Notes under the pieces: generated by a model
Seen by the model: only the letters and a program-made list of their open reading frames with translations
The model's database searches: none
What the model was told of the DNA's origin: nothing
Translations under genes and position numbers: made by a program
In this document: positions 3,232 through 42,596 of the stretch, in pieces
How the letters are laid out: every line of letters begins with the position of its first letter
Numbering within the stretch: the stretch's first letter is position 1
NCBI GenBank assembly: GCA_963726695.1
Contig: CAVSDE010000002.1
Location: 2,003 to 66,002, forward strand
DNA from: an uncultured Acidimicrobiales bacterium
GTDB taxonomy: Bacteria > Actinomycetota > Acidimicrobiia > Acidimicrobiales > DATKAS01
Direction of reading: 5' to 3'
DNA length: 64,000 bases

Positions 3232-3327
3232 GACTGCGAAGTACCCGCGGTCGCAGCCGCTCGAACTCGTCACGCTGCTTCGTCACCGAACTCACAACGC
3301 CCCCATGCAGCTCCCAGAGAAGTTACG

Positions 3328-5004: not shown

Positions 5005-5007
5005 GCG

Positions 5008-17353: not shown

Positions 17354-18691
17354 GCGGCGAGTAGGTGTTCGAGGTAGACGCTGAGTGCGTAGGTGGTGAG
17401 TCGTTCGCCGCCGCTGGCGGCACGCGCGGTGTCGGGGGTGATGCTGCGGGGTGGGTCGGGGAGCTGGTCGATGAGGGGCAGCGTGGCGAGGTCGGGTGGT
17501 CGCCCGCCGGTGGTGTCGCCTCGCGTGGTGCCGCCGAGGCAGCGTTCGCCTCGCCAGAACGTGTAGGTCTGGTCGCCGTGGGTGGTGATGGTCCAGCCGT
17601 GGTCGTGGATCTGGCGGTGGTGGTAGCCGCACAGCAGCACGAGGTTGTCGAGGTCGGTGGGGCCGCCGTGACGGTAGAAGCGGACATGGTGCGCGTCGAC
17701 GTAGCGGGTCTGGGTGCATCCGGGGAACTCGCAGCCGGTGACTCCGGCACGGAACCGCAGCGCTCGCCGTTGATGCCGTGACGCCGTGCGGACTTCGTTG
17801 CCGAGCCACAACGGCACCCCGTGGTGGTGGACCAACATCTGCACACTCGCCCCGCACATGATGCGGGCGAGCTCGGGATCGGAGAGCCGCTGCCCGGTGG
17901 CGGGCATGAAGCAATGCGACCCCAACCCGACCGGCAGGCGCTCGTCGAAGTCGAAGCCGAGCACCCGGGCCAACGTCGCCAGGTCGACCGAGACCTGGAC
18001 GCAGAACTTCTCGTCACCCCGATCCCGCAGACCCGCCCCGGCGGCGGCGTCGAGCATCGCCTGCGCGAACCGCCCCGCGATCTCGTTCGCGTTCAGCCGT
18101 CGGCGCTGCTCCAGATCGGTCGGGTCGAGATCCTTCTCGCCGGCCGCACGAGCCGCCGCCCACGCCTGCCGCGAACAGCGCTCCGGTGACCGCGTCGAGC
18201 GCCAAGTCGTACCGGTCCCGTCCGAGGTCGTCGACCCAATGCTTCTCCCAGAAGTCGACGTCGGGATCGGGCCCCGGCTCGGGCTCGTCCTGCTTGCGAC
18301 AGTCGCGGTACTTCGCGAAGATCCGCGCCGCCTGGGTCGGGACCGTGTCACGCACGACCTTCGCGACCAGCGCCTCGTTGTCGGGTGTCGCGACCCGCGC
18401 CGCCATCGCCAACACCCCGACCGAGAGCTGCCCGGCCAACGCGTCCGCGTGGATCGACCCGACATTGGCGAGCCGCAACGCCGCCGTCTGGAACGCGCGG
18501 CCCTCGGCCAACGTGACCTTGCCCCGCACCGACAACCAGTGCGCCAACGACCGATACCCCTCGCCCTGCCAGCCGTCGAGCCCGTCCAGCTCGGCCAGAC
18601 ACTCCACGACCTCCGCGCCCAAAGCGTGCTGCTGCGCGACCAGGACCCCGATCCGCGCCTCCAGCTCCCTCGCCCGCTCGGACTCCCGCAT
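17350..18691 (-). CDS. DUF222-type HNH endonuclease (REP13E12-like family), one frameshift near 18185
   Basis: N-terminal DUF222-like part in ORF 18014..18691. C-terminal HNH part (CEFPGC..DAHHV..NLVLLCGYHHRQIH) in ORF 17350..18726. Confidence 0.85.
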
Positions 18692-22184: not shown

Positions 22185-23188
22185 AGCGGCTGGGCGCGCT
22201 CTCGGGGATCGTCGCAGCGATCCTCGCGGTGACGGTGGCGATCGCTCAGCCCATCGATGCTCTCGGTCTGTTCACATCGACGCGCACGGTGCCCGCCAAT
22301 GCCTTCACCACGGGTTCGCTCGCCGCGCCCACATCGCTCGCCGCGTCGCCCAGTGGCGCGTCCATCGCGCTCTCCTGGAGCGCCACCGTGAGCGCCTTCG
22401 CCACCGGCTACAAAGTGCTGCGGGCGACGGCGAGCGGCGGGCCGTTCACGGCGATCGGGCAAGTGACGCCCCGCACGACCGTCGCCTATACGGACTCCAC
22501 GGCGACAGCGGGGATCACCTACTACTACGTGGTCCAGGCCTACTACCAGAGCTGGGTCAGCCCCAACAGCAACCAAGCGAGCGCGTCGACGTGCACGATC
22601 GCGCTGATCCAGACGGCGACGGGTGGAGGGAGCGCAGCCTCCTTTTCGGCAACGTTCGCGGCGACTCCGACTGTCGGGAACATGCTCATCGCAGTCGCGG
22701 GCACGCGTATCAACGGGACGATGACTGCCCCCGCGGGCTGGGCGACGGCGATCAACGAGGCAGCGAACCCTGCCCCGCAGGCGGCGATCTTCTACAAGCT
22801 CGCCGGCCCCTCAGAGCCGACGACGGTGACCGTGACGACGGATGCGACCGGCAACGGCAACGGCATCCACCTGTTCGAGTACCGATGCCTGACGACGCTG
22901 GACCAGGTGTCGTCGGACCACGCGTCGAGCAAGGCGGTCGCGTCCGGCTCGGTGACCACGACGCGCCCCTCGTCGCTCATCATCGCCGGACTCGTGGCGA
23001 GACAAGGCTCGGACCTGACCGGTTGGACCAACGGCTTCATGGAGCAGACCGACTTCACGCAGGGCGCCGGCGGTGCGGTCACCGTGTTCGCGGCGGCCGA
23101 CCGCATCGCATCCCCTGGGACTTACTCGACCACCGCGACGAGCGCTCAAGCCGGATTGTGGCGAGGCCAGATCGTCGCGTTCCACTGA
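22181..23188 (+). CDS. Exported protein: SipW-type signal, FN3 domain and an approximately 200 aa unassigned C-terminal domain
   Basis: ATG overlaps the SipW TGA. Signal ..ALGLFTSTRTVPANAFTTGSL. FN3-like SLAASPSGASIALSWSA..GYKVLRA..ITYYYVVQAY. Confidence 0.65.
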   Translation: MKRLGALSGIVAAILAVTVAIAQPIDALGLFTSTRTVPANAFTTGSLAAPTSLAASPSGASIALSWSATVSAFATGYKVLRATASGGPFTAIGQVTPRTTVAYTDSTATAGITYYYVVQAYYQSWVSPNSNQASASTCTIALIQTATGGGSAASFSATFAATPTVGNMLIAVAGTRINGTMTAPAGWATAINEAANPAPQAAIFYKLAGPSEPTTVTVTTDATGNGNGIHLFEYRCLTTLDQVSSDHASSKAVASGSVTTTRPSSLIIAGLVARQGSDLTGWTNGFMEQTDFTQGAGGAVTVFAAADRIASPGTYSTTATSAQAGLWRGQIVAFH

Positions 23189-23204
23189 CGGCTACCTTCG
23201 GGCC

Positions 23205-24761
23205 ATGTACCCGGGAGAACATGCCAAGACGAGGGCAGACGAGCCGGCGCTGATCATGGCGAACAGCGGCGAGGTGGTGACCTTCCGCCAGTTCGAAGCA
23301 GCGGCAAACCGGATGGCCCACCTCTATCGAGCGCAGGGCCTGCAGCGCACGGACCACGTCGCGCTCTTCTTCGAGAACAACCCGCGCATGCTCGAGTGCG
23401 AGGGCGGCGCCGAGCGAACCGGCCTCTACTACACGTGCATCAACTCGTACCTCGCTCCCGACGAGGTGGCCTACATCATCAACGACAGCGAGGCGCGGGT
23501 CGTCGTGACGTCAGCTGGCCAAGCGCGAGGTCGCCATGCAGCTTCCCGCGCTGTGCCCGAAGGTCGAGCGGTGGCTCATGGCCGACATCGACGCCGCCGA
23601 CGCTCCCTTCGAGAGCCTCGCGGAGGCGGCTTCGAAGTTCCCTGACACTCCGGTCGACGACGAGCAGCTGGGCGCAGCGATGCTCTACTCGTCGGGCACG
23701 ACCGGGCAGCCGAAGGGCATCCTGCGACCGCTTCCCGACGCGCATCCGAGCGCTGCGATGCCGGTGATGCAGTTCGTGCAAATGATGTTCCACTTCCGCG
23801 AGGCAAGACCTACCTGTCGCCCGCGCCGCTCTACCACTCTGCGCCGCAGGCGAGCGTGTCGGGCACGATGCGCCTCGGCGGCACCTCGGTGATCATGGAG
23901 CACTTCGATCCCGCGCAGTTCCTCGACCTCGTCGCCGAGCACCGCATCACGCATTCGCAGATGGTGCCGACGATGTTCTCGCGGCTGCTGAAGCTGCCCG
24001 ACGAGGTGCGCGCCGCGGCCGACCTGTCGTCGCTCGAGGTCATCATCCATGCCGCGGCGCCGTGCCCGGTGCCGGTGAAGCAGCAGATGATCGAGTGGTT
24101 CGGCCCGATCATCATCGAGTACTACGGCGCGACCGAGGCGAACGGCTTCACGTTCTGCGACTCGCAGGAGTGGCTCGCCCACCCGGGCACGGTCGGCAAG
24201 TGCATCCTCGGTCGAGCTGCTGATCCTCGACGAGGACGGCAACCCGTGCCCGACGGGCACGCCCGGCACCGTCTGGTTCAAGGGCGCGACCAACTTCGAG
24301 TACTTCAACGACGCCGGACAAGACGGCGGAGTCGCGCAACGAGACCGGCGATGACGAGCACGGTGGGCGACGTCGGGCTACGTCGACGACGACGGCTACC
24401 TCTACCTGACCGACCGCAAGACGCTACATGATCATCTCGGGCGGCGTGAACATCTATCCGCAGGAGACCGAGAACCTGCTCATCACCCATCCGAAGGTGA
24501 TGGACGCCGCGGTGTTCGGCGTGCCCAACGAGGACCTCGGCGAGGAGGTGAAGGCGGTCGTGCAGCCGATCGACGGGCGTCGAGCCCGGTCCCGAGCTCG
24601 AGCGCGAGCTGATCGCGTTCTGCCGCGAGCACCTCGCGCACTTCAAGTGCCCGCGCACGATCGACTTCGAGGCCGAGCTGCCGCGGTTGCCCACCGGCAA
24701 GCTCTACAAGCGGTTGCTGCGCGACCGCTACTGGGAAGGCCACACGACGAGGATCGCGTGA
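23205..24761 (+). pseudogene. Acyl-CoA synthetase (FadD-like), at least 5 frame switches
   Basis: [38 protein letters not shown]-type region, [12 protein letters not shown] and final [12 protein letters not shown] are found across ORFs 23073..23645, 23536..23892, 23856..24431, 24428..25336 and unlisted frames. Confidence 0.8.
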
Positions 24762-24763
24762 TC

Positions 24764-25336
24764 ATGCCTAGCGAAGTCGACGTCGTCGATCAGATGGAGC
24801 GCTCGTTCGCGCTGGCAACGGAGGTGCTGGGCCGAGTCCGTGAGGACCAGTGGGACTCGCCCTCGCCGTGCGAAGGGTGGACGGTCCGCGACGTCGTGAA
24901 CCACATGGTCGGCGGGGCCAAGATCGTGTCGATCGAGCTGTCGGGACACGGCGAGGGCGTGAACTACCACGTGAACCACCTGCGCGGGCTCGATCCGGTC
25001 GACGCGTATCGCGTGGCGGCTGCCGACGCGGTCGCGGTCTTCCGCAACGACCCTGAGCTCGTGGATCGCACGCTGCCGATGCCCTGGGGTCCCGAGACGG
25101 GCGCGACGGTGGCGACCATGTTCATGGGCGATCACTTCGCGCACGCGTGGGATGTTGCGAAGGCGACAGGTCAGAGCACCGACCTCGACCCGGACCTCGC
25201 CGAGAGCCTGATCCCGTTCGCTCGGGAGTACTCCACGCGCCATCGCGGGCCGGGGATGTTCGACGACGAGCAGATCGCCCCGCCCGACGCGACCGCTGCC
25301 GATCGACTCGCCGCGGTGCTCGGTCGCACGGTGTAA
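24764..25336 (+). CDS. DinB/MDMPI-N (TIGR03086-like) family protein
   Basis: [22 protein letters not shown].. and C-terminal [12 protein letters not shown] lies 3 nt after the upstream stop. Confidence 0.7.
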
Positions 25337-25366: not shown

Positions 25367-26291
25367 TCAGTCGCCTCGGTAGACCGGTCCACCGAGGTAC
25401 TTGAGGCCGGAATCGACTTGGATCGTGACCACGCGGTGGCCCTCTCCGAGACGGCGGGCGAGTGCGATTGCCGCGGTGAGGTTTGCACCAGTGGACGGAC
25501 CGGAGAACAGCCCCTCTTCCCGGGTCGCGCGCCGGGCCATCGCGAACGCGTCCGCAGTCGAGACCGCCATCACCTCGTCGAAGTCAGTGGTGGTCAGGAG
25601 GTCGGGCAAGAAGCCCGTCCCGCCCCCTTCGATTCGATGCGTCCCGGCCGCACCGCCCGACAGCACTGCCGACTCGGCGGGCTCGACGACGACGCGATGC
25701 ATCTCGGTGTGGCGGCTCCGCAACGTCTGGCTCACACCGAGGAAGCATCCTGCGGTGCCGACGTAGAGACTCAGCGCGTCGATGCGACCGGGAAGCTGAG
25801 CGAGGATCTCAGCGCCGAGCTGCCGGTAGCCATCGACCATGTCGGGGTTCGTGAACTGATCGGTCTGGTAGCCGCTGACCTCTGATGCGAGCTCAGCAGC
25901 TCGTGCGCGCATGCGAGGGATCAGCTCCGGAGTGATGCCGTCGGGGCTCGTGAGCACTTCGAGGTGCGCGCCGAACGCCTCCATCGTGCGGAGCTTCTCG
26001 TCGGCGAACGCGTCGGAGGTGACGATGTGCAGCGGGTATCCCTTGACCGCACATACAAAGGCGAGCGAGCTACCCGTGCTGCCGCCGGTGTACTCGACGA
26101 CAGGCTGGCCGGGCTTCAGACGACCGGACCGCTCGGCGCCTTCGATCATGGCGAGAGCCATTCGGTCCTTGTAGGAGCCGGTGGGGTTCGCGGCTCTCGA
26201 GCTTCACCCACACGTCGGCCATGCCCGGCTCCGCGAGGCGCTCGAGCCTCGCGAGCGGCGTGTTGCCGATCGCTCCGAGCATCCCGTCCAC
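25367..26291 (-). CDS. cysK: Cysteine synthase (PLP-dependent, CysK/CysM family), one frameshift near 26185
   Basis: N-terminus GNTPLARL..VWVKLES in ORF 26070..26291 and the remainder (GGSTGSSLAF, GTAGCFLG, GPSTGANL) in ORF 25367..26161. Confidence 0.85.
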
Positions 26292-26308: not shown

Positions 26309-27358
26309 TCACCAGCCCGGGTAGCGCTGCCACCACTCGTCCGGCGGGCTTCCCCACTCGTCAGCTGTCGGAGGATCGGTCATCTCGCTGACGAAGTCGT
26401 CGGCGACCGTCTCCACCAGGTCGCGTGCGTCGAGCACGTCGAGCCACCTCGTGGGGATCGCCTCCTCGCCGTGCAACGCCCCGAGGATGTTGCCGCAGAT
26501 CGAGCCCGTCGAGTCGGTGTCCCCCGAGTGGTTCACGGCCGCGAGCACCCCCTGTGCGAGGTCGCCCGCCGCAAGCGCGCAGCTCACCGCGATCGCGAGC
26601 GCTTCCTCGCCCACCCAGCCACCGCCGAGACGCGACTCGATGGTCGATGCGCTGGGCAGCCCGGTGGCCGCGACATCGACCGCGATGACGAGCACGGCAC
26701 GCATCTCCAGCGACGTCAGCTGCATCGCCGCGACGACCGCTTCGCTCAGCGGCGCGCCGTCAAGGACCGCTCGGATGATGACGGCGAGCACCCCTGCTGA
26801 CTGCCAACCGAGGGCATGCCCGTGGGTGAGCGTGGCGATGTCGCAGCCCAGTAGGTAGGTCTCGGGCAACGAGAGGCTCGGACACAGGCCGGCGGGCGCG
26901 GCCCTCATCACTCCCCCGCATCCCTTCGAGTCGTTGATGGGGTCTGTCGTCGTGCCCATCTCGCCGCTCGCAAGCGCGGACAGACAGGTGTTGCCCGGCG
27001 CCTCGCGACAGTGGAGGCGCCGATCGCGCGACGAGCCAACCGTCGAGCTCGCGGTCAATCGATCCCCCCTGCGTGTGGAGCCAGCGCAGATATGCAGAGT
27101 GGACGACGGAAGGTCCGTGCACGATGCCCCGAGTGCGTCCGCGCACGCTCGCGGATGAGTCCTTCGCACGTGAAGAGCGTCATCTGGGTGTCGTCCGTGA
27201 AACGACCGGGCGGCAGGAGCTCGGTGACGCCCACGGCTGCCGTGGAGGCGTTGGATCTCCTCCCACGACATGAACTCGATCGGGGCGCCGAGCGCATCGC
27301 CGGACGCCCCGCCGAGCAGGCAACCGCGGACTCGGTCCGCGAAGTCGACGCCGGTCAC
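26309..27358 (-). pseudogene. ADP-ribosylglycohydrolase (DraG/ARH family), canonical motifs, at least 3 frame switches
   Basis: GGASGDALGAPIEF near the N-terminus and NHSGDTDSTGSICGNILGALHG near the C-terminus. The middle part is spread over ORFs 27055..27297 and 26760..27146. GTG 27358 overlaps the stop of the upstream gene. Confidence 0.8.
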
Positions 27359-28960
27359 TCGTCGTCTGCGAGCTCCTCGGCCTCTTTGCGGCCACCCCAG
27401 AACTGCTCCTTGTCGAGCATCCGCATCCGGGCTGACTTCCCCCGCCACTCACGGGTGGCGCGATTGAGGCCGACGTACGCGGCGGCGACGCTCGAAGCCG
27501 TTGGCTGGAAGTTCGAGGTGCTGCCAGAGGAGAAGCCGAGCGCCCCACCCTCGGCGTAGCTGTCCTGGTTGGCACCGAGGAACACGAACGTCCAGCCGCG
27601 ATCCTGAAGGTCGGAGATGCGGCGGAACAGGCGACCGCGGTCCCAACGACGGCTCGCGTTCTCGTGGCCGTCGGTGAAGACCACGACGAGGTTGTCGGTT
27701 GCTGCGCCTCCGCGAGCTTCGGCGCGGTCGAGGAGCAACGCCGTCGCGTCAAGGAGCGGCGTGGTGCCGCGCGGGACGAACTCGGTGCTCTCCGAGAGGC
27801 ACCACAGAGGCGAGGTCTACGTCGTCGAGCAACACCTCGTGAGGGTCAGTGTCGTCGAACTGCACGAAGGTCACCCTTGCGGCACCCGTGACCGCACGCT
27901 GCTCGGAGAAGAACGCGTTGCATCCGCCCACGACCGCCTCTGAGATCGACGCCATTGAGCCGGATCGATCGAGCAGGAACCAGATGCGGGACTCGCCTTC
28001 GGTCGGCTCGTCGAGAAGGCGACTGACGATGCGCGTGGCGAGCGCGCGCAGGTCGCTCGCGAACTCGACACCAGCCGTCCATCGATTGGGGAGCGCACTC
28101 GCGCCCGACGCCGCCCCTGCGAGCGCGCCCGTGAGCGCCGCGAAGGTGTCGGCATTGCCCGGCACTGACGCTGCCGTCGTGATGGCGCGGACGGGCTCGC
28201 TGGGGAAGGAGCTGACGACGGCGATTGCCGCCGCGACGGTCGACACGGCCTGTTGGTCGAGCGACACGGTCGCGAGCAGCGTGTCGAGATCGAAGGTCGA
28301 GCTCGCGACATCTTCGCCACGGATCATCGATGCGATCGCGGCGGCGGCAATCGTCGCGGCATGAACCGCCTGAGCCGACGCGTGCGTCGTTGCCGCGTCG
28401 AGCCCAGCAAGCACAGGGCGCCGCATCGGGTCGTTCGCGAACACGAGGCCGGCGGCGACGGCGCGGCACAGCGCGCCTTCGCCGAACGACCCGGTTCCCG
28501 CCTCGAACCACGGCAGACCCGCCCGCCGCTGTTCGACCGTCGCGACGATCGCCCTTCCGGGGACGCGCAAGCGACGAGCGTGCGCGACGATGCGATCGCT
28601 GACGATCGGGGGCGCACCCACACCGTTGGTCAGCAGCGCCTCGGCCGAAATGACGAGCTGCTGCACGCCGGCCCGCACCTTGCCGTTCGGACCGTCGAGG
28701 CGCCGGGCCTCGAGCCAATCGGTCGACACAAAGTCGGCCGCGCCGCGCTGACGCTGCTTCTTCTCACCCAGGCGGCCGAGCGCGTTGCCGATCGCAGCGC
28801 CGAGCAACGCGCCGGCGACGCGATCGAGCAGGACCTCGCGGTCCGGCAGGGCCTCGTCGGCAGGGTTGCCGGCAGCAGGGAGCAGACCGCGGCTCTGCAG
28901 GCTCATCATGGCGACCGGGCCCACAGCCAGGTCCAGCTCGGCAAACACGTCGTCGGTCAT
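27355..28960 (-). CDS. Fusion protein: ARH-like domain with substituted metal-site motifs plus a C-terminal vWA domain, one frameshift near 27750
   Basis: ORF 27749..29107 carries the ARH-like part, then MIDAS LLDRSGSM. ORF 27355..27738 continues the vWA domain (VVVFTDGHENAS, FVFLGANQD). GAGGAGG sits 6 nt upstream of ATG 28960. Confidence 0.7.
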
Positions 28961-28977
28961 GCGCATCCTCCTCAGGA

Positions 28978-29017
28978 TCTTGTCGAAATGACTATAGCAG
29001 GTTCTTGTCGTATCGAC
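28978..29017. promoter_or_regulatory. Two 15-bp direct repeats TCTTGTCG(A/T)A(A/T)(T/C)GAC, 25 bp apart, in a divergent intergenic region
   Basis: tcttgtcgaaatgac at 28978-28992 and tcttgtcgtatcgac at 29003-29017, 12 of 15 identical. They lie between the ARH-vWA gene and the Nudix regulator gene. Confidence 0.25.
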
Positions 29018-29050
29018 TCTTTCTAGGTAGCGTCGAGGCGTGACCGGACC

Positions 29051-29813
29051 GTGAGCACCAGACGTCGGGGCCATACGGCCCCCAAGGGCTACGACCCGAG
29101 CGAGCACCCGCAGTTCGCAGTGACGGTCGACGTCGTGATCCTGACGATCGTCGACGAGCAGCTGCAGGTGGTCTTAGTGAGGCGCCGTGACGATCCCTAC
29201 AGGGGGATGTGGGCGTTGCCCGGTGGGTTCAAACGGCCCGACGAGACCCTCAAGGACGCTGCTTCGCGTGAGCTGCCGAGAGGAGACCGGCGTCGAGGCG
29301 GCCGACTACTTGAGCGAGTTCGGCGCCTACGGCGACCCGGGGCGCGATCCGCGGATGAACGTGGTGACCATCGGCTTCCTGGCCGTGCTGCGCGATGTCG
29401 GTCAGCTCGAGGGCGGGAGCGACGCGGCCGAAGCGAGGTTGGTTCCCGTCGCCGAAGCGATCAGCGGCGACGACGAGCTTGCTTTCGACCACGCACAGAT
29501 CTTGCGAGACGCAGTCGAGCGCGCTCGCCGCGACCTCGAGACGACGAGCCTGGCGAAGGCGTTCGTCGGACCGACCTTCACTCTGAAGAGCCTGCGCAAC
29601 GTCTTCGAAGCGGTATGGGAGACCGAGCTCGACGCGGCGAACTTCCATCGCACGATGACGCGGTCGCCAGGACTCGTGAAGCCGTTGGGTACTCACGTCG
29701 CGCCAAGCCGGATCGGCGGGAAGCCCGCGCAGCAGTTCGAGTTCGGCGAAGACTTCCGCGCCGCACCGATGCGGCGGCCGCCAGAGGAGTCGACGGACGA
29801 GGGCGATAAATGA
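29051..29813 (+). CDS. Nudix hydrolase domain plus C-terminal winged-helix (NrtR-like ADP-ribose-responsive regulator), one frameshift near 29275
   Basis: The Nudix box GGFKRPDETLKDAASRELREETGV is restored by joining ORF 29051..29809 to ORF 29187..29813. The C-terminal part (FTLKSLRNVFEAVWE..ANFHR) is NrtR-like. Confidence 0.75.
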
Positions 29814-29829: not shown

Positions 29830-31230
29830 CTAGCCCGTCGCTTCCTCCAGCGCGTCCCACGCCTCGGCGAGGCACTCCCGATAGAACGCGGGGTCGGGCA
29901 TCATCTCGCGGCAGGCGGTGAACGCCGAGCACGAGCTCGTCGCAGTAGCTGGTGATCACGTTGATCAGGCCCATGCCGTCGACGACGGGGCCACCGCCCC
30001 ACGACGAGACCATCTTCGCCCCGGCGAAGTACAACGGCTGCCGCGCTCCCGGAACGTTCGTACACGTCGTGTTCGCGGCCGCCGGCGCATGCGCGCGCGA
30101 AACGCGAGGAGAGGCGCATGCCGATGCCGACGAGCCCGCCGGGGATGAACTGGCTCAGCTCACTGAGCGACCGAGCATCGGATGCCTCCGCGAACTCCTT
30201 CGACGCGTGGCTCGCGGACTTCACGAACTTCAGGCGCTCGAGCGGATCCGCGATCTGCGTGCCCAGCGGAACGACCATCGCCGACACCTGATTGCCTCCG
30301 GCCTTCGCTTCCTCCGCTGAGCGCAACGAGATGGGGCACATCGCGAGAAGCGACGCGTCGGGCAGCTCGCCCTTCGCCGTGAGGTACGTGCGGAGGCCAC
30401 CGCCGTAGACGGTGAGCACGACGTCGTTGATCGTCGCTCCTGTCACCTCCGACTTGATCGCCTTCGCCGACGAGATCGTCGTTCTGAACGCGTCCATCAC
30501 CCGATGCGGCGTGACCGGTCCGTTGAACCGCGTGCGTGGCGCCGTCTCCGGACGCTGCCGCGTCGCGGCCGCCCGACCCATCCCCGGCACGACCCGTCCC
30601 ATCACGCGGGCGAAGTGCGCGGGCCGCGTCAGGTTGTTCAGTCCCGAGCGTGACAACAGCTCCGCGTTCGAGGGCACGCTCTCCGGAACCCACGGCTCCG
30701 CGGGCGGAGGCGGCGGATCGGCATCGGGCGTCTGATCGTGGATCGCGGTGATCATCTCGACGCCGGCCATCCCGTCGATCGCCGCGTGGTGGACCTTCAG
30801 CACGACCCCGAAGCTGCCCTTCGGCAAGCCATCGATGCCGTCGAGCCCCTCGATGACGTACATCTCCCAGAGCGGGCCTCGACAAGTCCAGCGGCCGCGC
30901 GTGCAGCCGGGCCGCCTGGATGCAGAACTGGCGCCAGTCCCCCGGCTTCGGGCAGCGCGATGTGGCGCACGTGGTACTCGAGGTCGAACTCGCCGTCCTC
31001 GATCCAGTACGGATGGTCGAGGTCGAACGGACACGCGCACGAGCCTCCTGGCGGAACGCGCGCGCCAGGTGCACCCGCTGCTCGAGGTGGTCGAGGATCC
31101 CCTTGAAGGTCACCTCCCCGCTCCGGGGCCGTCGACTGGTCGTAGACGAGGATGCGACGTCACGTGCGTCGGCGCGTGAGGCGACTCGCTGTACACGAAC
31201 GAGGCGTCCGAGTCCGCTCAGCTGCTGCAT
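29830..31230 (-). pseudogene. Wax ester synthase / diacylglycerol acyltransferase (WS/DGAT), at least 4 frame switches
   Basis: N-terminus MQQLSGL.., active site HHAAIDG (ORF 29901..31040) and C-terminus YFAGAKMVSSWGGGPVVDGMGLINVITSY (ORF 29693..30034). The true stop is TAG at 29830-29832. Confidence 0.8.
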
Positions 31231-36732: not shown

Positions 36733-37181
36733 GACCCCGCTCGCGGTCCTGGGGTCTGGTCATACAGCTCATCGACCTGGACGGTGAGCGCGAGGACCTC
36801 GGCCGGTGTCATCCGATCCAACAGGTCACGGGGCACGTGGTCGGACGCTTCGACATCGCTGTAGAAGGCAGCCGTGTACCGCACCAACTTCAAGGCGTCC
36901 GTCTCGTTTCCCTGCTCAGCCGCTACGACGGAGCCCTTCATCTGGATCGAGTGCAACGTCGGCACGTCGGTGCTGGTGATCGCGATGCGTCCAGACGTGA
37001 CGACGTCAGGCGTGGCGAGCAGGCGGATGCGCACCGGCTCGTCGGCCGAGATCACCGTCAACCCCCACGCACGCGAGGCGTACGGCTCGCCGTCGGCGTC
37101 GAGTGTGCACACGATGAGCGCACAGCCTCCTTGAAGGAACTGAACCAACTCGTCGTCGAGCACTAAGCGAGTTCTTAGCAT
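36720..37181 (-). CDS. Pyridoxamine 5'-phosphate oxidase-like protein (second copy)
   Basis: The start is taken at MLRTRLVLDDELVQFLQGGCALIVCTLDADGEPYASRAWG. The upstream part of ORF 36720..37439 lies in a lower-GC spacer. Confidence 0.55.
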   Translation of the reverse strand: MLRTRLVLDDELVQFLQGGCALIVCTLDADGEPYASRAWGLTVISADEPVRIRLLATPDVVTSGRIAITSTDVPTLHSIQMKGSVVAAEQGNETDALKLVRYTAAFYSDVEASDHVPRDLLDRMTPAEVLALTVQVDELYDQTPGPRAGSCLT

Positions 37182-37268
37182 TCGGTTACGAGCCTTTTGG
37201 GAGCCCCGATCCTGAAGATCCCGGACCATGTCCCCAACGAACAGAGACACGAGCAAAGGGGACTTCCG

Positions 37269-37976
37269 ATGACCGCAGTCGATGCACCGATCAAGGCTCT
37301 CGAGGCAGTGACGTTCAGCCTGTACCGCGATGTCCACAAGGGCATCCGCAAGAACCTCTTCACCCTCGTCGAGCGGGCCGGCTCCGCGGATCCGTCGGTG
37401 CGGAAGGCTCGCGCTCGAGCTGGCCGATGAGCTCGGCAAGACGATCTACCTGCTGACACTGCACGCCCATCACGAGGACGGGTCGATCGGCCCGGTGCTC
37501 GAGCGGGAGGCGCCGGATCTGGCCGCGGAGATCGTCAGCGACCACGAGAGGCTCGACTCGCGGCTCGTCGACCTGCAGGCCATGGCGAGCGAGCTGGTTG
37601 ACGCTCCCGCAGGCGTCCAGCGGGAGGCCATGTACCGCGCTCTACGTCGAGCTCGCGGCGTTCACGAGCTCGTACCTCGCCCACCAGGACCTCGAGGAGC
37701 GAGTCGTGATGCCCGCCATCGAGACAGGCGGTCGGCGTGGAAGCCGTCATCGGCATCCATGGTCAGATCCTCGGGACGCTGACACCCGAGCAATCTGCGA
37801 TGTCCCTCTCGTTGATGCTGCCCGCGATGAACATCGACGACCGCTCGGAGCTGCTCGGCGGAATGCGCGCGCACGCACCGGCCGAGGTGTTCGAAGGCGT
37901 GTGGGGCCTGACTGGCTCGGTCCTCACGGTCCCCGACCTCCGCGACCTCGGCAAGCGCCTGCAGATCGCGGCCTGA
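37269..37976 (+). pseudogene. Hemerythrin-like (HHE cation-binding) domain protein, 3 frame switches
   Basis: Pieces in ORFs 37197..37430, 37330..37782, 37598..38044 and 37737..37976. His/Glu motifs LHAHHEDGS, SDHERLD, YLAHQDLEERVVMP. aaagggga precedes ATG 37269. Confidence 0.7.
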
Positions 37977-37979
37977 ACC

Positions 37980-38527
37980 TCAGGCGCGCCGGCCGAGGAA
38001 GGCGAGCAGCTTCGTCTGTTCGTCGGCCTCGGCCGGCACTTTGATCTCCGGGCCGAACGCCTGGGGACCGCGCATCTTGTCGGCAAGCGGCGCCATCGCC
38101 TCGCGCACATCGGCCAGATCCTTCGAGTCGATGTGATCGTCGAGGCCGGCGGCACGGGCGAGATCCCAGCCGTGCACGATCAGGTCCGTGCAGATGAACT
38201 GGTCGATGCCTTGCTCGAACGTCGCCTTGCCGGCGAAGCCGTCGTACTCCTTCTTCGCGACGGAAGGATCGTCGAGTGCGGCTTGGGTGGCGTCACGAGC
38301 CACTGCCCAAGCGGCAGCCGGATCGTCCTCGACCGACGGCACCTTCGGCGGGTCCTCTTTCGCCATGCCGAAGAACAGTCCTGGTGTCTCAGTCAGATGC
38401 CGGACGACGTCGATCGCCGTCCAGTCTTTGCACGGGCTCTGTGCGTCCCACTTGCCCGGCGGCACCGGTCGATCTTCTCGGTGACTCCCGCGGCCAACCG
38501 CCGGTATCGATCGCTGATCGCAGTCAT
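37980..38527 (-). CDS. DinB/MDMPI-N (TIGR03086-like) family protein, one frameshift near 38460
   Basis: MTAISDRYRRLAAGVTEKIDR.. joins ..VPPGKWDAQSPCKDWTAIDVVRHL of ORF 37980..38588. Confidence 0.65.
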
Positions 38528-38697
38528 GGGCGGACCGTACCCGCTCGCTCGTGAGCCCAGCCTGGGTCGCTCGAGCAGCGCGGACCATTCCTACTCACCC
38601 AAAGAACCCGACCAAACCTCCCGGGTCCCCCGGAAGTGTCCATTACGTCGCACAGCGAGTGCAGCGGCGTTGGCGGGAACCACTCGGGCGTCGACCA

Positions 38698-38722
38698 CCC
38701 CGGCCTGGCGGGAGGGCCGGGG
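38698..38722 (-). terminator. Stem-loop CCCCGGCC-N9-GGCCGGGG
   Basis: Perfect 8-bp GC stem about 55 nt downstream of the stop of small ORF 38777..38962, with no U-tract. Confidence 0.35.
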
Positions 38723-38776
38723 CGTTCGACTTTTGTCGCCGCCTCGTTCTGCCCGAGTGGCTCCGGACACGAGGTC

Positions 38777-38962
38777 TCAGCTGCCCGCAAGCCCGCTGGC
38801 CGGGTCGTCGGCCACCGGCTTCCCGCCGTCGAGGTGCACGTCGACCGCCACGGGATCGCCGTCGCCTGACTCCTGCGTGAACGTCACTTGGATGCTCGCT
38901 GCGTCGGACTTCGTCTCGCTGATCAACCATCCTGGCGACGGCGAGATTCCGATGCTCCCCAA
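38777..38962 (-). CDS. Small hypothetical protein (61 aa, TTG start)
   Basis: Strong G/C bias at third positions, balanced composition (GISPSPGWLISETKSDAASIQVTFTQESGDGDPVAVDVHLDGGKPV) and a hairpin downstream. Confidence 0.3.
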   Translation of the reverse strand: MGSIGISPSPGWLISETKSDAASIQVTFTQESGDGDPVAVDVHLDGGKPVADDPASGLAGS

Positions 38963-39015
38963 ACCTTTCGCGGGGGCGCGTCGTGTGAGCGCTATCCGTC
39001 CGATAGGAGGCCAAC

Positions 39016-39584
39016 ATGGAGCGACGACACGCGTTTGCGATGGCCGCGGCTGTCACCCTGGTCGCAGCGAGCTCGACAGTGGCGGCCTGCCGCGATCGCT
39101 GTCCCCGGCGAGCCTCGGCTTCGGAGCCGGGGCTTCCGCGGATCCCTCCGAGCCGACGACCGCGTCATCGATCGCGACTGAGGCTCTCCCAACGGTCCCT
39201 TCCACCGTGGTGGAGGTGAGGACGCGAATGATCGACGACGTCGTGCACGTCCCCGCCCCCGACGCTCCGACGTCCGCTGCAGCGGCCGCGCCGACCGCCT
39301 CCGTGAGGCTCGACGATCCCTGCCGGCAAGGGGGCCGATGAGGGCACCGAGGGCGACGACGAGATGGCTTCGAACAGTCGCTGCGCAAGCGGCAGTAGAC
39401 CACGATGGCGACGAGCTCGTCAACGGCCGCCGCCGCGACGGCAGCTCCGCCCACGACGATGCACGAGCACGACGACGACGAGCACGAGGGTTCTTCGACG
39501 AGTGCACCGGCAATGACTGCCACCACGATGGGCGCATCGACGAGCTCACCACGCGGCCCGCACGACGGTGGCTCCGACGACTGA
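39016..39584 (+). pseudogene. Signal-anchored low-complexity protein with a His/Asp/Glu-rich tail; frame repeatedly broken
   Basis: AGGAGG at 39005-39010, then ATG 39016 MERRHAFAMAAAVTLVAASSTVAA. Later pieces (..TVPSTVVEVRTRMIDDVVHVPAPDAP.., ..HEHDDDEHEGSS..PHDGGSDD stop at 39582-39584) lie in other frames. Confidence 0.3.
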
Positions 39585-40215
39585 TGGAGGGCTCGAACGA
39601 ATCGACAACAGCGAGCCAGGCCGACCGGCTCGCGGTGTCTGGCTGAGCGCCGCTCGAGACAAGCCGGCGGCAGCGCCGCCGAGGCCACGTCACCGACTCC
39701 AACGGCCTCGACTGTCGACACGCCGGACCACCCCCGCAAGCACCGCTCAGCGCCGCACCCCCCAGCGCTGGACCGGCCGCCATCGCCCTTGGCGCCCCAT
39801 TGCGACCAAGGGCGCGGTCGACCCATCGGAGGCGGACGCACAAAGCCGGCGCGGGTCGCATCCTCAGCGCGGGCCTGAGCACCGCGATGTGCCTGTTCAT
39901 CGTCGCTGTGCTTGCCGCCAACCCGCCGAGCTGGTCGTCGCCGGCAACCGGTCGCTGCCGTCGGGCCGACTCCCCCACGCTCATCGACGTCTCGGTGTAC
40001 TGCACCTGGACAGACCCAGCCGGCCCGCCGAACGACGTGACCTGCGGAGGCGGCGCCGGCGCGCCGACGGCGCCGACGTCGCAGGCGGAGGTGGAGGTGA
40101 CCGAGGCTGTGCGCAGGACTGGCCGGATGCCTGACGCCCGGCGCCGCACTCACGGTCACCGTGGCACCCGACGCCTCTTGACCGCCGCCCGCCGCCGAAC
40201 CGCCGCCGAGCGCGC

Positions 40216-40570
40216 TGGTGCCCCGTCCGCGAGGACGCCACGCTCGGGGTTCAGTCGTTCACCACCGACGTCAAGGAAGGCGCCCGTCGCGATGAGCACG
40301 ACGCTCATCCGCCGTTGGCGGCGGGGGGAAGTCGAGGTCCACCACATCATCGATCCGGCCAAAGGTCGTCCAGCTCACTCGGGGCTCGTGGCAGCCGGTC
40401 GTGTCAGCGTCCGAGGCTTGGTGGGCTGAAGGCCTGGCGAAGGCGGCGATCGTCGAAGGCCCGCACGCGGGCGAAGCCCTCCTCCGGCGCTGCGGCGTCG
40501 AGGGTTGGCTCACCTCCGAAGATGGCACGACGACACGCGCGTCGCGAGCACTGCGGAGGGATCGTCGTGA
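40216..40570 (+). pseudogene. apbE: FAD:protein FMN transferase (ApbE) C-terminal half, at least 3 frame switches; the N-terminal half could not be traced
   Basis: W.PVRED..VKEGA / VAMSTTLIRRW..VEVHHIIDPAKGRPA / SWQPVVSASEAWWAEGLAKAAIVEG in three frames. A TGA at 40568-40570 overlaps GTG 40567 of the next gene. Confidence 0.6.
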
Positions 40571-41259
40571 TCGCAGAAGTGACCCCGCAGCTGTGGTGGT
40601 ACGTCGCCCGGGCGAGCGGGCTGACCGCGTACGCGCTCGCGACTCTGTCGGTGCTCTTGGGACTGGCGTTCTCAGCCCGCGCAGTGAGACGGCGGGGCGC
40701 TCCCGCGTGGATGAACGACCTCCACCGGTTCCTCGGCTTCCTCACCGTCGTGTTCACCGCGGTCCACCTGCTCGGGCTGTGGGCCGACAGCTACGTGCAC
40801 TTCGGTCCGAGCGAGCTCTTCGTGCCCATGGCTTCGACCTGGAACCCCGGTGCCGTCGCGTGGGGAGTCGTCGCTGCGTATCTGCTCGTCGCGATCGAGC
40901 TCACGTCGTGGGCGCGACGGCTGTTGCCTCGCCGTGTCTGGCACGCCGTGCACCTCTCGAGCATCGGGCTCTTCGCTCTGGCGACGGTCCACGCGGTGCA
41001 GGCAGGCACCGACACGGACATGGTTGCGCTGGTGTGGACGTTCGTCGGCTGCGTGCTGACCGTCGGCTTCCTCGTGCTCTACCGGTGGCTGACCCGGCGG
41101 TCCGCTGGAGGCTCGACGAGGAGAGCGACCGGTCGAGCTCGTCGAGGCCGCCTGATGAGCTCCGAGCCGAGCCCCTACTCGTCGAAGTGCACCTGCTGGG
41201 GGAAGCCGTCCACGAGACGGAGGTGGATGCCCGCCGGCCGTCCTCACCGCTTCGCTTGA
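40567..41259 (+). CDS. Ferric-reductase-like transmembrane (MsrQ/YedZ-type di-haem) protein; 3' end uncertain
   Basis: QLWWYVARASGLTAYAL.., LHRFLG..AVHLL, ELTSWARRLLPRRVWHAVHLSS..TVHAV. The paralogue at 48688..49242 is 185 aa, so the last 30-40 codons here may be read-through. Confidence 0.75.
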   Translation: MIAEVTPQLWWYVARASGLTAYALATLSVLLGLAFSARAVRRRGAPAWMNDLHRFLGFLTVVFTAVHLLGLWADSYVHFGPSELFVPMASTWNPGAVAWGVVAAYLLVAIELTSWARRLLPRRVWHAVHLSSIGLFALATVHAVQAGTDTDMVALVWTFVGCVLTVGFLVLYRWLTRRSAGGSTRRATGRARRGRLMSSEPSPYSSKCTCWGKPSTRRRWMPAGRPHRFA

Positions 41260-42010
41260 ACTGAATTCGGATGTCGTCGGGCTGCGCGTTCGTGGTGCCA
41301 ACCGTGAACCCGGGCGCCGGCGTCACCTCGAGCAGTGCTCATCGCTGTCGGTGTGTAGCTGATCTGACACCGAGCCCCCGGCGGACGAGAACGACGCGGT
41401 CGACGCCGCTGTCGTCAACGACGTCGAGGACGAGGTCGACGAGGTCGACGACGTCGAGGTCGACGTCGACGACGTCGAGGACGAGCTCGACGCCGTCGAA
41501 GACGGGACCGACGCGGTCGTCACTGACGGTCGACTCAGACGTCGAAGCCCCGTCCGACCGCGGACACCGACGGGGTCGCGGGGGCTGCGGCACCGTCGCC
41601 CCGACCGTGGTCGGGGCAACGGCCCGCGGCGTGGTCGGAGCCGCAGTTGGGCCTCCGGCTGTCCCCGACCGTGGCTCGGGGAACGTCGGTGGATCGGGAG
41701 CAACGGAGGCCGAGGTCGTCGGCGCCACCGAGGACGACGCGTAAGGCGGTGGCTCCGCAACCGTGTCGTCTCGATCGTCGGGCCGGTGCCGGCGACGCGG
41801 AGCCGGCTGGCACCCTCGTCGGAAGACCGCGCCACGATCGCTCCGAGGGCAACCACGCCGATCAGCCCAGCGCCGCCACGTACCGCTGCCCGCCGCTGGT
41901 GCGCCCGCCGGATCCGTGGCCGGATCTGGGCCGAGCGCGTCGTCGGCCGATGGCTGCTCCCCCGCCGCCCGCTCGAACATCTGCTTCACATTGCTCTCAT
42001 CGTCAACCAT
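41175..42010 (-). pseudogene. Anti-sigma-factor-like membrane protein with a Ser/Thr- and Pro-rich linker; several frame switches
   Basis: ATG 42010 overlaps the sigma-factor stop (ATGGTTGA). MVDDESNVKQMFERAAGE.., TM GLIGVVALGAIVA.., low-complexity stretch, C-terminus FTVGTTNAQPDDIRIQFKR..IHLRLVDGFPQQVHFDE with stop at 41175-41177. Confidence 0.45.
41400..41500. repeat. Imperfect short-period repeat (gacgtcgag / gtcgac units) inside the anti-sigma-like gene
   Basis: The run gtcgtcaacgacgtcgaggacgaggtcgacgaggtcgacgacgtcgaggtcgacgtcgacgacgtcgaggacgagctcgac reads as a Ser/Thr run in one minus frame. Confidence 0.6.
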
Positions 42011-42504: not shown

Positions 42505-42596
42505 CGGGCGGGGCGTCGTTCACCGGGCGTCCACGCTTCCTGGCCCCGGAAAGGTTTGGTCGACCACCACAATTCTGTCGGCGCGACGATGGGTCC

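Follow-up and report, generated by a model that had tools for sequence, protein, structure and literature searches.

Gene organization and sequence quality of the locus

Three-frame translation of positions 26309-29813 of the analysed DNA stretch of 64 kb (here called the window) revealed a module of three genes, two on the minus strand (genes A and B) and a divergent plus-strand gene encoding a Nudix/NrtR-like regulator (Table 1). Since gene B starts with the GTG at 27358, its GTGA overlap with the stop codon of gene A (27355-27358) is exact, as read in an earlier note on this DNA, and the starts at 28960 and 29051 also agree with the 90 nt given there between gene A and the divergent Nudix gene.

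Table 1. Coordinates of the genes, domains, predicted control elements and indels of the module (positions in the window)
Feature	Position	Strand	Remarks
Gene B, canonical ADP-ribosylhydrolase (ARH)	26309..27358	-	c. 350 aa after repair; GTG start 27358
Frameshifting indels in gene B (three)	~27236, ~27149, ~27030	-	
Gene A, ARH-like-vWA fusion	27355..28960	-	534 aa after repair; ATG 28960, TGA 27357-27355
vWA domain of gene A	27358..27997	-	residues c. 322-534; complete MIDAS; Pfam VWA
Extra C interrupting the deposited gene A sequence, GAGCA(C)CGAG	27785	-	alignment to L009 and L001
MIDAS D-R-S-G-S codons of gene A	27956-27970	-	
ARH-fold domain of gene A	28016..28828	-	residues c. 45-315; PF03747, Foldseek, motif table over 96 fusions
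Divergent control region between regulator gene and ARH-vWA operon	28961..29050		90 nt
Ribosome binding site of gene A, GAGGAGG	28973-28967	-	
Predicted NrtR-type operator 2, AGTCATTTCGACAAG	28979..28993	-	over 3' half of the -10-like hexamer and expected transcription start
-10-like hexamer TATAGT of the ARH-vWA operon	28991..28996	-	inferred promoter element
Predicted NrtR-type operator 1, AGTCGATACGACAAG	29004..29018	-	GT-N7-AC core; exact family-motif match
NrtR-like regulator gene, Nudix and NrtR winged helix	29051..29813	+	GTG start 29051; c. 253 aa after repair
Frameshift in the regulator gene, extra base	~29277	+	located against L009/L001

All three genes needed frame repair. Five small indels were detected within 3.5 kb, four of which are single extra bases according to the alignment to the related loci L009 and L001. 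The extra C in gene A was placed at about 27785, not near 27750 as noted before, and a public gene call on the same contig (P0003, 403 aa, 99% identical) ends at this indel. Such a number of frameshifting indels, three of them in gene B, together with the fact that two public gene calls, P0003 and P0138, are truncated at the same points, might indicate that the module in this genome is a cluster of decaying pseudogenes and that the frameshifts are real. This is quite unlikely, however, as unrelated neighbours are likewise split, e.g., the acyl-CoA synthetase gene at 23.1-25.3 kb, and related MAGs from this series, whose isolate names begin with MFD, carry similar splits at other positions (L010, L011, L013, L017-L019, and L039). 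Moreover, all indels but one are single extra bases, and the repaired frames, free of premature stops and degrading substitutions, score as high as intact orthologues. The window is part of an error-rich MAG, and split frames also occur elsewhere in it.

An eroded ARH domain fused to vWA and a canonical ARH

After frame repair, the gene A product matched both PF03747 (ADP_ribosyl_GH, 102 bits) and PF00092 (VWA, 25.0 bits, cut-off 23.8), so that the fusion of an ARH-fold domain with a vWA domain described in the earlier note was recovered by Pfam. It is no artefact of the indel, a possibility also raised there, as more than 90 intact homologues of 500-650 aa, chiefly from Acidimicrobiia, carry the same fusion; intact proteins of 530-570 aa were found at 83%, 75%, and 72% and further down to 30% identity. 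The AlphaFold2 model (mean pLDDT 91.2) displayed a confident two-domain fold, and Foldseek assigned the first domain to ARH structures as top matches (2CWC, MJ1187, ARH3, and DraG; E 1e-11 to 1e-7), with a TM score of 0.76 on the target for 2CWC.

Within the clade of the window, the binuclear-metal site of this domain is degenerate: it reads GNALG, has AGVQQ instead of TDDT, and GNADT instead of GDTDT. The metal-binding aspartates are lost, while the domain still has the SxGxG...R loop and the TH motif. A motif table over 96 fusions revealed that the catalytic residues are gone in most clades; distant fusions (P0097, P0105, P0112, and others) retain G(D/E)ALGEPxE, (S/T)DT, and GGDTDT, and judging by these motifs their ARH domains look catalytically competent.

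The vWA domain turned out to be the most conserved part of the system. Its MIDAS, reported as intact before, comprises DRSGS, the T of GTTPLLDA, and the D of FTDG, and these residues (D331, S333, S335, T400, and D430) were invariant in 24 fusions and in stand-alone vWA members. Gene A also carries GANQDSY, a motif specific to this vWA family. The modelled domain showed alternating beta-alpha secondary structure, and profile matches were obtained to TRAP and integrin I-domains.

For gene B, the assignment as a canonical DraG/ARH-type hydrolase was borne out by a full-length match to PF03747 (230 bits, profile positions 1-287 of 287) and by catalytic motifs that provide all metal-site ligands after repair (GDALGAPIE, FTDDTQ, and SGDTDST), so that it is predicted to be a catalytically intact ARH. 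Its product aligns end to end with Thermus thermophilus ARH (2CWC) and also aligns to DraG (2WOC), and an intact orthologue in L001 gave a match of 764 bits. It stayed below the NCBIfam equivalog cut-offs for DraG (83 vs. 337 bits) and Tri1 (75 vs. 490 bits).

The NrtR-like regulator and its predicted operators

The regulator matched PF00293 (NUDIX, 80 bits) and PF21906 (NrtR_WHD, 33.8 bits, cut-off 27), and residues 13-208 align over both domains to Shewanella oneidensis NrtR (3GZ5) and AraR (5BS6) and also to 2FML, which confirms the NrtR-type DNA-binding domain proposed earlier. Against NCBIfam NF050029 it reached 112 bits, far under the equivalog cut-off of 400. The Nudix box (GGFKRPDETLKDAASRELREETGV) is intact and displays the full GX5EX7REUXEEXGU signature, so the domain is canonical and not divergent, as it had been called. 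As in the NrtR family (PMC2330246; 3GZ5; Mycobacterium smegmatis NrtR, PMC6800001), an N-terminal Nudix domain is followed by a C-terminal winged helix, and palindromic GT-N7-AC operators are predicted in the divergent promoter region. The complete Nudix box differs from the degenerate ones of S. oneidensis and M. smegmatis NrtR, the latter protein (MsNrtR) being inactive.

Both predicted operators agree with the GT-N7-AC core given for NrtR sites by Rodionov et al. (2008, PMC2330246). Only two exact matches to the operator motif were found in the 64-kb window, both inside the 90-nt divergent region. Across orthologous intergenic regions, GTC-N5-GAC occurred at 4.9 per kb compared with 0.47 per kb outside (about 10-fold enrichment), at least one such site was present in 31 of the 44 loci whose homologous intergenic regions were compared, and in silico the NrtR-type operators of the divergent region are conserved across phyla. 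TATAGTC recurs in many orthologous intergenic regions; a consensus scan for the promoter of the ARH-vWA operon revealed no full sigma-70 -35/-10 pair.

The same layout of TATAGT and operator was detected on leaderless starts of NrtR-like paralogues, and the motif is present also at paralogues without vWA. Since paralogues of about 60% identity with the same operator type are predicted to control Zn-dependent dehydrogenase genes, this regulator clade does not seem to be dedicated to ADP-ribose erasers. One NrtR-like paralogue adjoins a 2H/LigT gene.

Conservation across genomes

At species level, 69 loci of this vWA family were compared, and an NrtR-like gene accompanies the vWA gene in 43 of them, namely at 24 of 29 ARH-vWA fusions, at all nine vWA-ARPP fusions, and at 10 stand-alone vWA genes; in the other 26 close loci no NrtR gene was found. 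The divergent arrangement occurred in all five contexts of fusion homologues at 83-40% identity. The divergent pair of NrtR and fusion gene persists at identities as low as 30-40% and in different phyla, but the three-gene neighbourhood, which the earlier note had also put forward, is not the conserved unit: no more than about 11 of the 29 fusion loci have a second ARH, mostly as an ARH-DSP phosphatase fusion (ARH-DSPc in L003, L005, L012-L014, L021, and L029), and most loci lack it, among them close relatives like L002. Therefore, a combination of ADP-ribose reader and eraser cannot be the universal logic of these loci; their conserved core consists of the NrtR-like gene and vWA, whether or not an ARH is present.

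Members of the vWA family have an ARH at either the N- or the C-terminus, an ARPP domain at the C-terminus, or no additional domain. The reverse-order vWA-ARH fusion (P0102, L044) shows that the link between ARH and vWA arose more than once, and the fusion to ARPP-1 (PF20208, 217 bits) was found in nine loci. The distribution is patchy, comprising Acidimicrobiia, Gemmatimonadota, Acidobacteriota, Chloroflexota, Myxococcota/Deltaproteobacteria, and one Mycobacterium MAG. Stand-alone homologues of 30-37% identity were detected in Bacilli, archaeal plasmids, and 165 phage genomes, mostly without ADP-ribose-related neighbours. The best phage homologue, from Xanthomonas jumbo phage XacN1, adjoins a WGR-PARP gene; this single case hints that the writer and eraser sides may share a common adaptor.

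These stand-alone homologues, as well as the 26 of 69 close loci in which the NrtR gene is missing, could be taken to mean that the vWA protein serves a process unrelated to ADP-ribose, e.g., a TerY/YegL-like stress or metal response, with the ARH-like domain as a structural appendage. The independent fusions of vWA to ARH in both orders and to ARPP, the tight pairing with an NrtR-type regulator, and the WGR-PARP gene abutting the XacN1 homologue argue against it, and we regard it as very unlikely.

Genomic surroundings and comparison with known systems

The surroundings were covered by a Pfam scan of the longer high-GC3 coding segments at about 0-22 kb and 33-64 kb, while the stretch at 22-33 kb was read by eye. 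No PARP/ART, SIR2, or Macro domain was found in the scanned segments, in line with the earlier remark that the window holds no ADP-ribosyltransferase or sirtuin, and the annotated flanks of the relatives' loci revealed none of these families either. NAD biosynthesis or salvage genes were detected neither in the scanned window nor in the 8-kb flanks of related loci. In this respect the regulator differs from the founding NrtR members, for which control of NAD genes is typical, though not universal. A search against PADLOC-DB 2.0 gave no match for the fusion, ARH, ARH-DSP, vWA, or vWA-ARPP; the sole match was a generic Nudix match to PDC-S07. The flanks in the window and in close relatives are syntenic and contain metabolic or housekeeping genes (WS/DGAT, acyl-CoA synthetase, cysteine synthase), which suggests vertical inheritance, and a defence role is therefore not indicated locally. 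Some copies of the module elsewhere lie beside Mrr, GIY-YIG, transposase, or ThsB-TIR genes.

That no comparable system has been described, as the earlier note had it, was overstated. In section 3.8 of their paper, Iyer, Burroughs, Anantharaman and Aravind (2022, Viruses 14:1977; PMC9503650) predicted, purely computationally, systems centred on ARG (= ARH) and regulated by Nudix- or WYL-HTH proteins. As described in that section, they have no linked writer and are associated with phosphatases (R-P/DSP, calcineurin-like, HD, or HAD, in about 55% of systems), ARPP, and peptide-binding 'chaperones' (vWA, SseB, or TY-Chap). The module shares with this description an ARH without coupled ART or sirtuin in the scanned window or annotated flanks, a one-component Nudix-HTH (NrtR-like) predicted negative regulator 90 nt away with predicted operators, a Mg-dependent vWA 'chaperone', the actinobacterial distribution, and variable accessories around a conserved core; its relatives carry ARPP and an R-P/DSP phosphatase fused to a second ARH. 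The vWA-ARPP-1 fusion (PF20208) likewise ties the vWA family to the published systems. Thus, the module is a genuine member of a computationally known class and not a new kind of system. Compared with the section cited, ARH and vWA are here joined in one polypeptide and the fused ARH has no metal ligands, the window module is without the phosphatase found in about 55% of the described systems, and the core emerging from our survey is the NrtR-vWA pair and not ARG, including loci without any ARH.

A further precedent is the Streptomyces nrtR1-draG-SCO1765 locus, listed together with nrtR2<>nrtX-nrtY divergons by Rodionov et al. (2008, PMC2330246, Table 1). In these loci, too, an actinobacterial NrtR paralogue is predicted to control an ADP-ribosylglycohydrolase gene ('reversible protein ADP-ribosylation') or genes of unknown function via a shared operator. 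The Streptomyces genes are, however, co-directional with nrtR and not divergent as here, and no vWA is mentioned in that paper. Gene B shares fold and catalytic motifs with the erasers of the DraT/DraG, Tre1/Tri1, and Listeria ART-ARH pairs (PDB 6DRE, 8ZA7), but unlike these it has no adjacent cognate writer.

Iyer et al. (2022, PMC9503650) also proposed an anti-phage role, in which host proteins become modified by phage ARTs, the ADP-ribose set free turns on the operon, ARH strips off the modification, and the vWA part holds the targets. Apart from this published rationale, the lack of a linked writer in the scanned window, the accessories that vary around a conserved core (ARH-DSP, an NYN-like gene, and ARPP), the patchy spread over phyla, and the copies beside Mrr, GIY-YIG, transposase, or ThsB-TIR genes are in favour of such a counter-measure. 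With no PADLOC match and syntenic housekeeping flanks in the window and close relatives speaking against it, we consider it possible but doubtful for the present module, and it would be a special case of the function proposed below.

Proposed function

On balance, and with modest confidence, we favour the view that the module is an ADP-ribose-responsive operon combining a reader with an eraser, close to the combination of sensor or adaptor, eraser, and ADP-ribose switch suggested in the earlier note; it agrees with the finding that the fused ARH has lost catalytic residues and that the NrtR-type operators are conserved. The NrtR-like protein is predicted to bind both GT-N7-AC palindromes in the 90 nt between the divergent genes. 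As one of them covers the putative -10 box of the ARH-vWA operon together with its expected transcription start, the operon would be held off when the regulator is bound. ADP-ribose is an established anti-repressor of NrtR family members and releases NrtR from DNA in vitro (PMC2330246, PMC6800001), and its accumulation in free form would free the operon from the repressor. As its Nudix box is intact, the regulator is probably able to hydrolyse ADP-ribose as well and would thereby reset the switch. In the cytosolic fusion, the pseudo-ARH, which keeps the nucleotide-binding loop, may bind ADP-ribose or an ADP-ribosylated protein without cleavage, and the MIDAS vWA may engage a protein partner. 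The translationally coupled ARH of gene B could then strip ADP-ribose from targets of a writer encoded elsewhere, in phage or host.

ARH3-type enzymes hydrolyse O-acetyl-ADP-ribose, so the module could instead serve a clean-up of small molecules, with ARHs acting on free O-acetyl-ADP-ribose, ADP-ribose-1''-phosphate, and the like, the Nudix domain degrading ADP-ribose, and vWA as a scaffold, unrelated to modified proteins. The intact Nudix box, the DSP-type phosphatase to which the second ARH is often coupled in relatives, and the 2H/LigT gene beside one NrtR-like paralogue point in this direction. This alternative is nevertheless unlikely, since the best-conserved part of the system is a MIDAS vWA, a protein-interaction module, the catalytic residues have been lost from the fused ARH in most clades, and NAD salvage genes are absent from the scanned window.

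Coming back to the reader and eraser operon, the attachment of a vWA domain to an ADP-ribosylation enzyme is known from vertebrate PARP4/vault PARP. There and in the WGR-PARP/vWA pair of XacN1, a MIDAS-type vWA is coupled, physically or genomically, to ADP-ribose chemistry; these enzymes are writers, whereas the module here contributes an eraser-fold domain. One may also speculate, though it is rather unlikely to hold as a whole, that the functional heart is an unrecognised two-gene unit of an ADP-ribose-sensing and -hydrolysing NrtR-like switch and a dedicated MIDAS vWA, which recruits varied heads (active ARH, pseudo-ARH, or ARPP). The head in the clade of the window would then be a dead ARH-fold ADP-ribose reader, a new class of bacterial reader that passes modified proteins to a separate eraser.

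Bacterial protein ADP-ribosylation beyond toxins and nitrogenase control is poorly understood, and we know of no host system demonstrated to reverse phage-inflicted ADP-ribosylation. The locus, although the copy in the window comes from an error-rich MAG, represents the predicted ARG-centric systems in a compact and conserved form that is open to testing. Its defined predicted operator could serve to build an ADP-ribose-responsive reporter, and its regulator may both sense and destroy its own inducer. The module also holds a natural pair of pseudo-enzyme and enzyme of the ARH fold. The partner of the vWA domain would reveal the targets, and if the dead ARH domain is indeed an ADP-ribose reader, it would represent a new reader fold beside macrodomains.

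Gene layout and domain composition

The module lies in a window with a G+C content of 68% and comprises two minus-strand genes, one for an ARH-like-vWA fusion (gene A; ARH, ADP-ribosylglycohydrolase) and one for a canonical ADP-ribosylhydrolase (gene B), as well as a plus-strand gene for an NrtR-like regulator (Nudix gene). Gene A, preceded by GAGGAGG at 28973-28967, revealed an ARH-like region followed by LLDRSGSM; its frame is lost at about 27785 and taken up one frame over with EFVPRGTTPLLDA...VVVFTDGHENAS...GANQDSY. Its stop codon and the start of gene B form an exact GTGA overlap. Based on Pfam searches with the stitched (frame-repaired) proteins, the ADP-ribosylglycohydrolase, VWA and NUDIX/NrtR domains postulated in the earlier note were all matched. 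None of the module proteins reached the NCBIfam equivalog cut-offs for DraG, Tri1, or NrtR, which places them in these superfamilies, outside the characterised orthologous groups. Searching the window for Rfam families and tRNAs resulted in no match, and a terminator scan in no convincing candidate.

Features of the ADP-ribose module and its control region
Feature	Position	Strand	Remarks	Pfam match
Gene A (ARH-like-vWA fusion)	ATG 28960 to TGA 27357-27355	minus	three-frame reading of 29010-26300	ADP_ribosyl_GH, 102 bits; VWA, 25.0 bits (cut-off 23.8)
Gene B (canonical ARH)	GTG 27358 to 26309	minus	same three-frame reading; three frame changes	ADP_ribosyl_GH, 230 bits, whole profile covered
Nudix gene (NrtR-like)	GTG 29051 to 29813	plus	one frame change; 90 nt from gene A start	NUDIX, 80 bits; NrtR_WHD, 33.8 bits (cut-off 27)
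Predicted operator site 1	29018-29004		exact AGTC-N5-GACAAG match	
Predicted operator site 2	28993-28979		exact AGTC-N5-GACAAG match; overlaps TATAGT	
TATAGT hexamer	28996-28991		putative -10 element; overlapped by site 2	

Reality and structure of the fusion

A search of 5.8 billion proteins revealed 167 relatives, 96 of them with a length of 500-660 aa. In four of these the vWA domain came first; in the others a single chain carries an N-terminal ARH and then the vWA, at identities from 83% down to about 30%. Since intact full-length homologues occur at every identity level and the split of gene A is due to one extra C compared to two relatives, we reject the possibility, raised in the earlier note, that an indel had artificially joined two separate genes; the fusion is real. 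Structure prediction of the repaired gene A protein, also suggested there, led to a confident AlphaFold2 model (mean pLDDT of 91.2), the N-terminal half of which resembles solved ARH structures, namely Thermus thermophilus 2CWC (TM 0.76 on target), MJ1187, ARH3, and DraG. Profile comparison of the vWA half revealed similarities to TRAP and integrin I-domains, and the residues of its metal site (MIDAS), D331, S333, S335, T400, and D430, are all present and invariant in all members.

Frameshifts and sequence quality

Alignment of the module to two related loci, L009 (87% DNA identity) and L001, assigned its breaks to single extra bases at 29277, 27785, 27236, and 27030 and to a loss of 2 nt at 27149. 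Unrelated neighbouring genes are broken likewise: those for an acyl-CoA synthetase, a cysteine synthase, and a WS/DGAT protein each extend over two or three frames (23073-25336, 25367-26291, and 29901-31230). Related MAGs from this series, with isolate names MFD*, are split at other positions, and the public gene calls for the same contig, P0003 (403 aa) and P0138 (181 aa), both 99% identical, end at the same breaks. We read the breaks in the module as probable assembly or sequencing errors and not as gene decay. Across the whole window we found about one frameshifting indel per 0.5-1 kb, a density that looks more like a long-read MAG left unpolished than like local gene decay. The region 37100-42800, with few long clean reading frames, fragments of a DinB/MDMPI-like gene, and a low-complexity stretch rich in Ser/Thr at around 41.4-41.7 kb, was probably hit harder by indels than the rest; by eye, a frame-broken lookalike of an ECF-type sigma factor was putatively located at about 42003-42704.

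Elsewhere in the window, an ordinary protocatechuate/4-hydroxybenzoate catabolic cluster unrelated to the module (3319-7945) harbors genes for a CMD carboxymuconolactone decarboxylase, two Dioxygenase_C proteins, a Lyase_1 protein, an alpha/beta hydrolase, and a FAD_binding_3 hydroxylase. At 17356-18174 on the minus strand, an HNH-endonuclease-type protein (...LLCGYHHRQIHDHGW...) is encoded, for which a segment scan revealed no Pfam family at E <= 1e-5 and which, judged by eye, resembles the actinobacterial REP13E12/DUF222 family.

Active sites

Gene B encodes the complete ARH signatures GDALGAPIE, TDDT, and GDTDS. At these positions, the fused ARH domain of the window's clade carries GNALGRLGE, AGVQQ, and GNADT. 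Missing are the two TDD aspartates and, from the last motif, its first aspartate; the SxGxG...R loop and the TH motif are retained as invariant columns. In ARH3 and DraG, the aspartates lost here coordinate the two metals and are essential, and the loop that is kept here forms part of the wall of the adenosine-diphosphate pocket. By its residues, the fused ARH appears to be a pseudo-enzyme in the window's clade. Apart from a few degenerate members, the full catalytic set persists in the distant fusions P0097 and P0099-P0119, and the erosion is therefore secondary.

The regulator of the window has a complete Nudix box, GGFKRPDETLKDAASRELREETGV, as has each of the five relatives for which the sequence was extracted; the box of Shewanella oneidensis NrtR, by contrast, is degenerate in our alignment, and the NrtR of Mycobacterium smegmatis is inactive (PMC6800001).

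Control region

The orthologous intergenic regions share the motif TA(T/G)AGTC-N5-GAC(A/T)A(G/A)AAC, often in two to three copies about 25 bp apart, which has the same GT-N7-AC core as that described for NrtR operators by Rodionov et al. (2008; PMC2330246). Sites 1 and 2 are the only exact AGTC-N5-GACAAG matches in the 64 kb. Among 44 loci, GTC-N5-GAC occurred at 4.9 per kb in the intergenic regions versus 0.47 per kb elsewhere, with at least one site in 31 of the loci.

A scan of the window for consensus promoters revealed no sigma-70 pair. NrtR-like paralogues that share about 60% identity with the regulator of the window precede Zn-dependent dehydrogenase genes, so that NrtR-like homologues as such were discarded as a marker of the system. 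At three of these loci, GTC-N5-GAC operators lie over the paralogues' own start codons, just after a TATAGT (L090, 5995-6011; L091, 5998-6014; L092, 5964-6014); the operons that they head carry a gene for a Zn-dependent alcohol dehydrogenase/quinone oxidoreductase, and in L091 a 2H/LigT phosphoesterase gene is located divergently upstream. Since hexamer and operator sit directly on the start codons, leaderless transcripts are implied and the paralogues are probably leaderless and autoregulated, which also supports TATAGT as a -10 element. Based on its conservation and on these paralogues, we infer that TATAGT would serve as the -10 of the ARH-vWA operon, in which case binding at the overlapping site 2 would block initiation.

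Conserved neighbourhood

An NrtR-like gene is found divergently upstream, at a distance of about 100 nt, in all annotated contexts at 83, 71, 52, 45, and 40% identity. For a broader survey, one genome per species was taken, resulting in 80 loci annotated with our own profile HMMs on six-frame translations. The gene was identified upstream on the opposite strand in 43 of 69 non-redundant loci of the close vWA family, i.e., in 24/29 loci with an ARH-vWA fusion, all nine with a vWA-ARPP fusion, and ten with a stand-alone vWA; several loci lacking it have almost no upstream sequence. A second ARH within 8 kb was found in only about 11 of the 29 fusion loci, in most cases with a fused dual-specificity phosphatase domain, which rules out the three genes as a conserved unit: the arrangement of the window, the conservation of which the earlier note had proposed to test, recurs only in its nearest relatives. 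As the NrtR-like gene recurs with vWA proteins of several architectures and the second ARH is variable, the conserved unit is the NrtR-like gene plus vWA. The vWA family is mainly acidimicrobial, with further members in Gemmatimonadota, Acidobacteriota, and Chloroflexota and in one deltaproteobacterial, one myxococcal, and one Mycobacterium MAG.

The vWA-ARPP proteins carry a C-terminal ARPP-1 domain (PF20208, 217 bits), as in L040 (7980-9593) and in L030, L032, L034, L036, L041, L042, L049, and L069; operator-like sequences accompany the upstream NrtR-like gene in all nine, which are mostly MAGs labelled Candidatus Spongiisociaceae or Spongiisocius. Fusions in reverse order were detected in L044 and in P0102. 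The context of the latter (L089, 747-1307 and 8001-9782) harbors the vWA-ARH gene (593 aa), an adjoining ThsB-type TIR gene, and genes for an SNF2 helicase, a Metallophos nuclease, and an SMC-like ATPase, yielding no NrtR gene in this region; it looks like a defence island.

In five relatives, the fusion is separated from the second ARH by a small NYN-like gene (weak Pfam match, 20 bits). Directly downstream of the fusion, a small conserved gene of about 150-175 aa was seen in the close relatives L009 (9682-10119), L003 (9697-10218), L002, L010, L039, L059, and L066, with the NYN/PIN-like match of 20 bits in L003 and none in L009. Neither the window nor L001 has this gene, and its loss accounts for the GTGA overlap there; it may encode an accessory or effector of RNase type.

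Writers, defence systems, and phages

In agreement with the earlier note, which had seen no ADP-ribosyltransferase or sirtuin in the window, Pfam scans of high-GC3 coding segments joined end to end (a GC3/GC2-filtered set in place of the six-frame set of 49.7k residues), with 22-33 kb read by eye, revealed no ART, PARP, SIR2, or Macro domain. PADLOC resulted in no defence-system model for the module, and on this basis the reading as a known defence system was dropped.

Among phage proteins, the best match to the vWA domain (37% identity) belongs to Xanthomonas jumbo phage XacN1 (L094, 3723-4994 and 5004-5654), where it lies 10 nt downstream of a gene with WGR and PARP catalytic domains, a writer-vWA pair mirroring the ARH-vWA fusion of the host. 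This is a single case: the homologues of Streptomyces, Gordonia, and Pseudomonas phages have no ADP-ribose-related neighbours, so that phage contexts were dismissed as a general link to ADP-ribose. In large actinophages, namely Streptomyces phage LukeCage (L093, 4983-5603) and Gordonia phage Sixama (L097, 3486-4160), a stand-alone vWA gene borders the tRNA gene array, and about 89 Streptomyces phage records carry a homologue at a conserved position behind the genes for terminase and HNH.

Relation to published systems and proposed function

Iyer et al. (2022; PMC9503650, section 3.8) described 'ARG-centric' systems from actinobacteria and other phyla, in which the ADP-ribosylglycohydrolase (ARG) occurs without a linked ART or sirtuin, accompanied by Nudix-HTH or WYL regulators (more than 42%), phosphatases (about 55%), an additional 'chaperone' gene, for example vWA, and accessories including ARPP; reversal of phage-inflicted ADP-ribosylation and induction by released ADP-ribose were proposed as their role. 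The module of the window has the defining features except for the phosphatase, and it is firmly linked to this class by the ARPP fusions that its vWA family forms at other loci. In Streptomyces, nrtR1-draG had already been predicted as a 'reversible protein ADP-ribosylation' regulon (PMC2330246). The module belongs to a kind already predicted computationally and is not a new one; the earlier note, which knew of no described system with an ARH-vWA fusion, had set its novelty too high. A literature search revealed no experimental study of systems with ARH, vWA, and Nudix; the module is real, conserved, and uncharacterised.

Architecture, conservation, operators, and residue loss were observed, whereas all steps of binding and catalysis, as well as the origin of the ADP-ribosylation, are part of a proposed scheme that we consider the most likely. 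The NrtR-like protein would be a repressor released by ADP-ribose and would probably also consume this inducer, the fused ARH-fold domain would act as a non-catalytic reader tethered to a protein-binding vWA domain with its MIDAS, and gene B would provide the coupled active eraser.

As a concept the module is not new, and its source sequence contains many errors; it gives good experimental handles, and this analysis adds to the published description an NrtR-vWA core, an operator motif, a fused ARH that appears to be a pseudo-enzyme in the window's clade, and an intact Nudix box.
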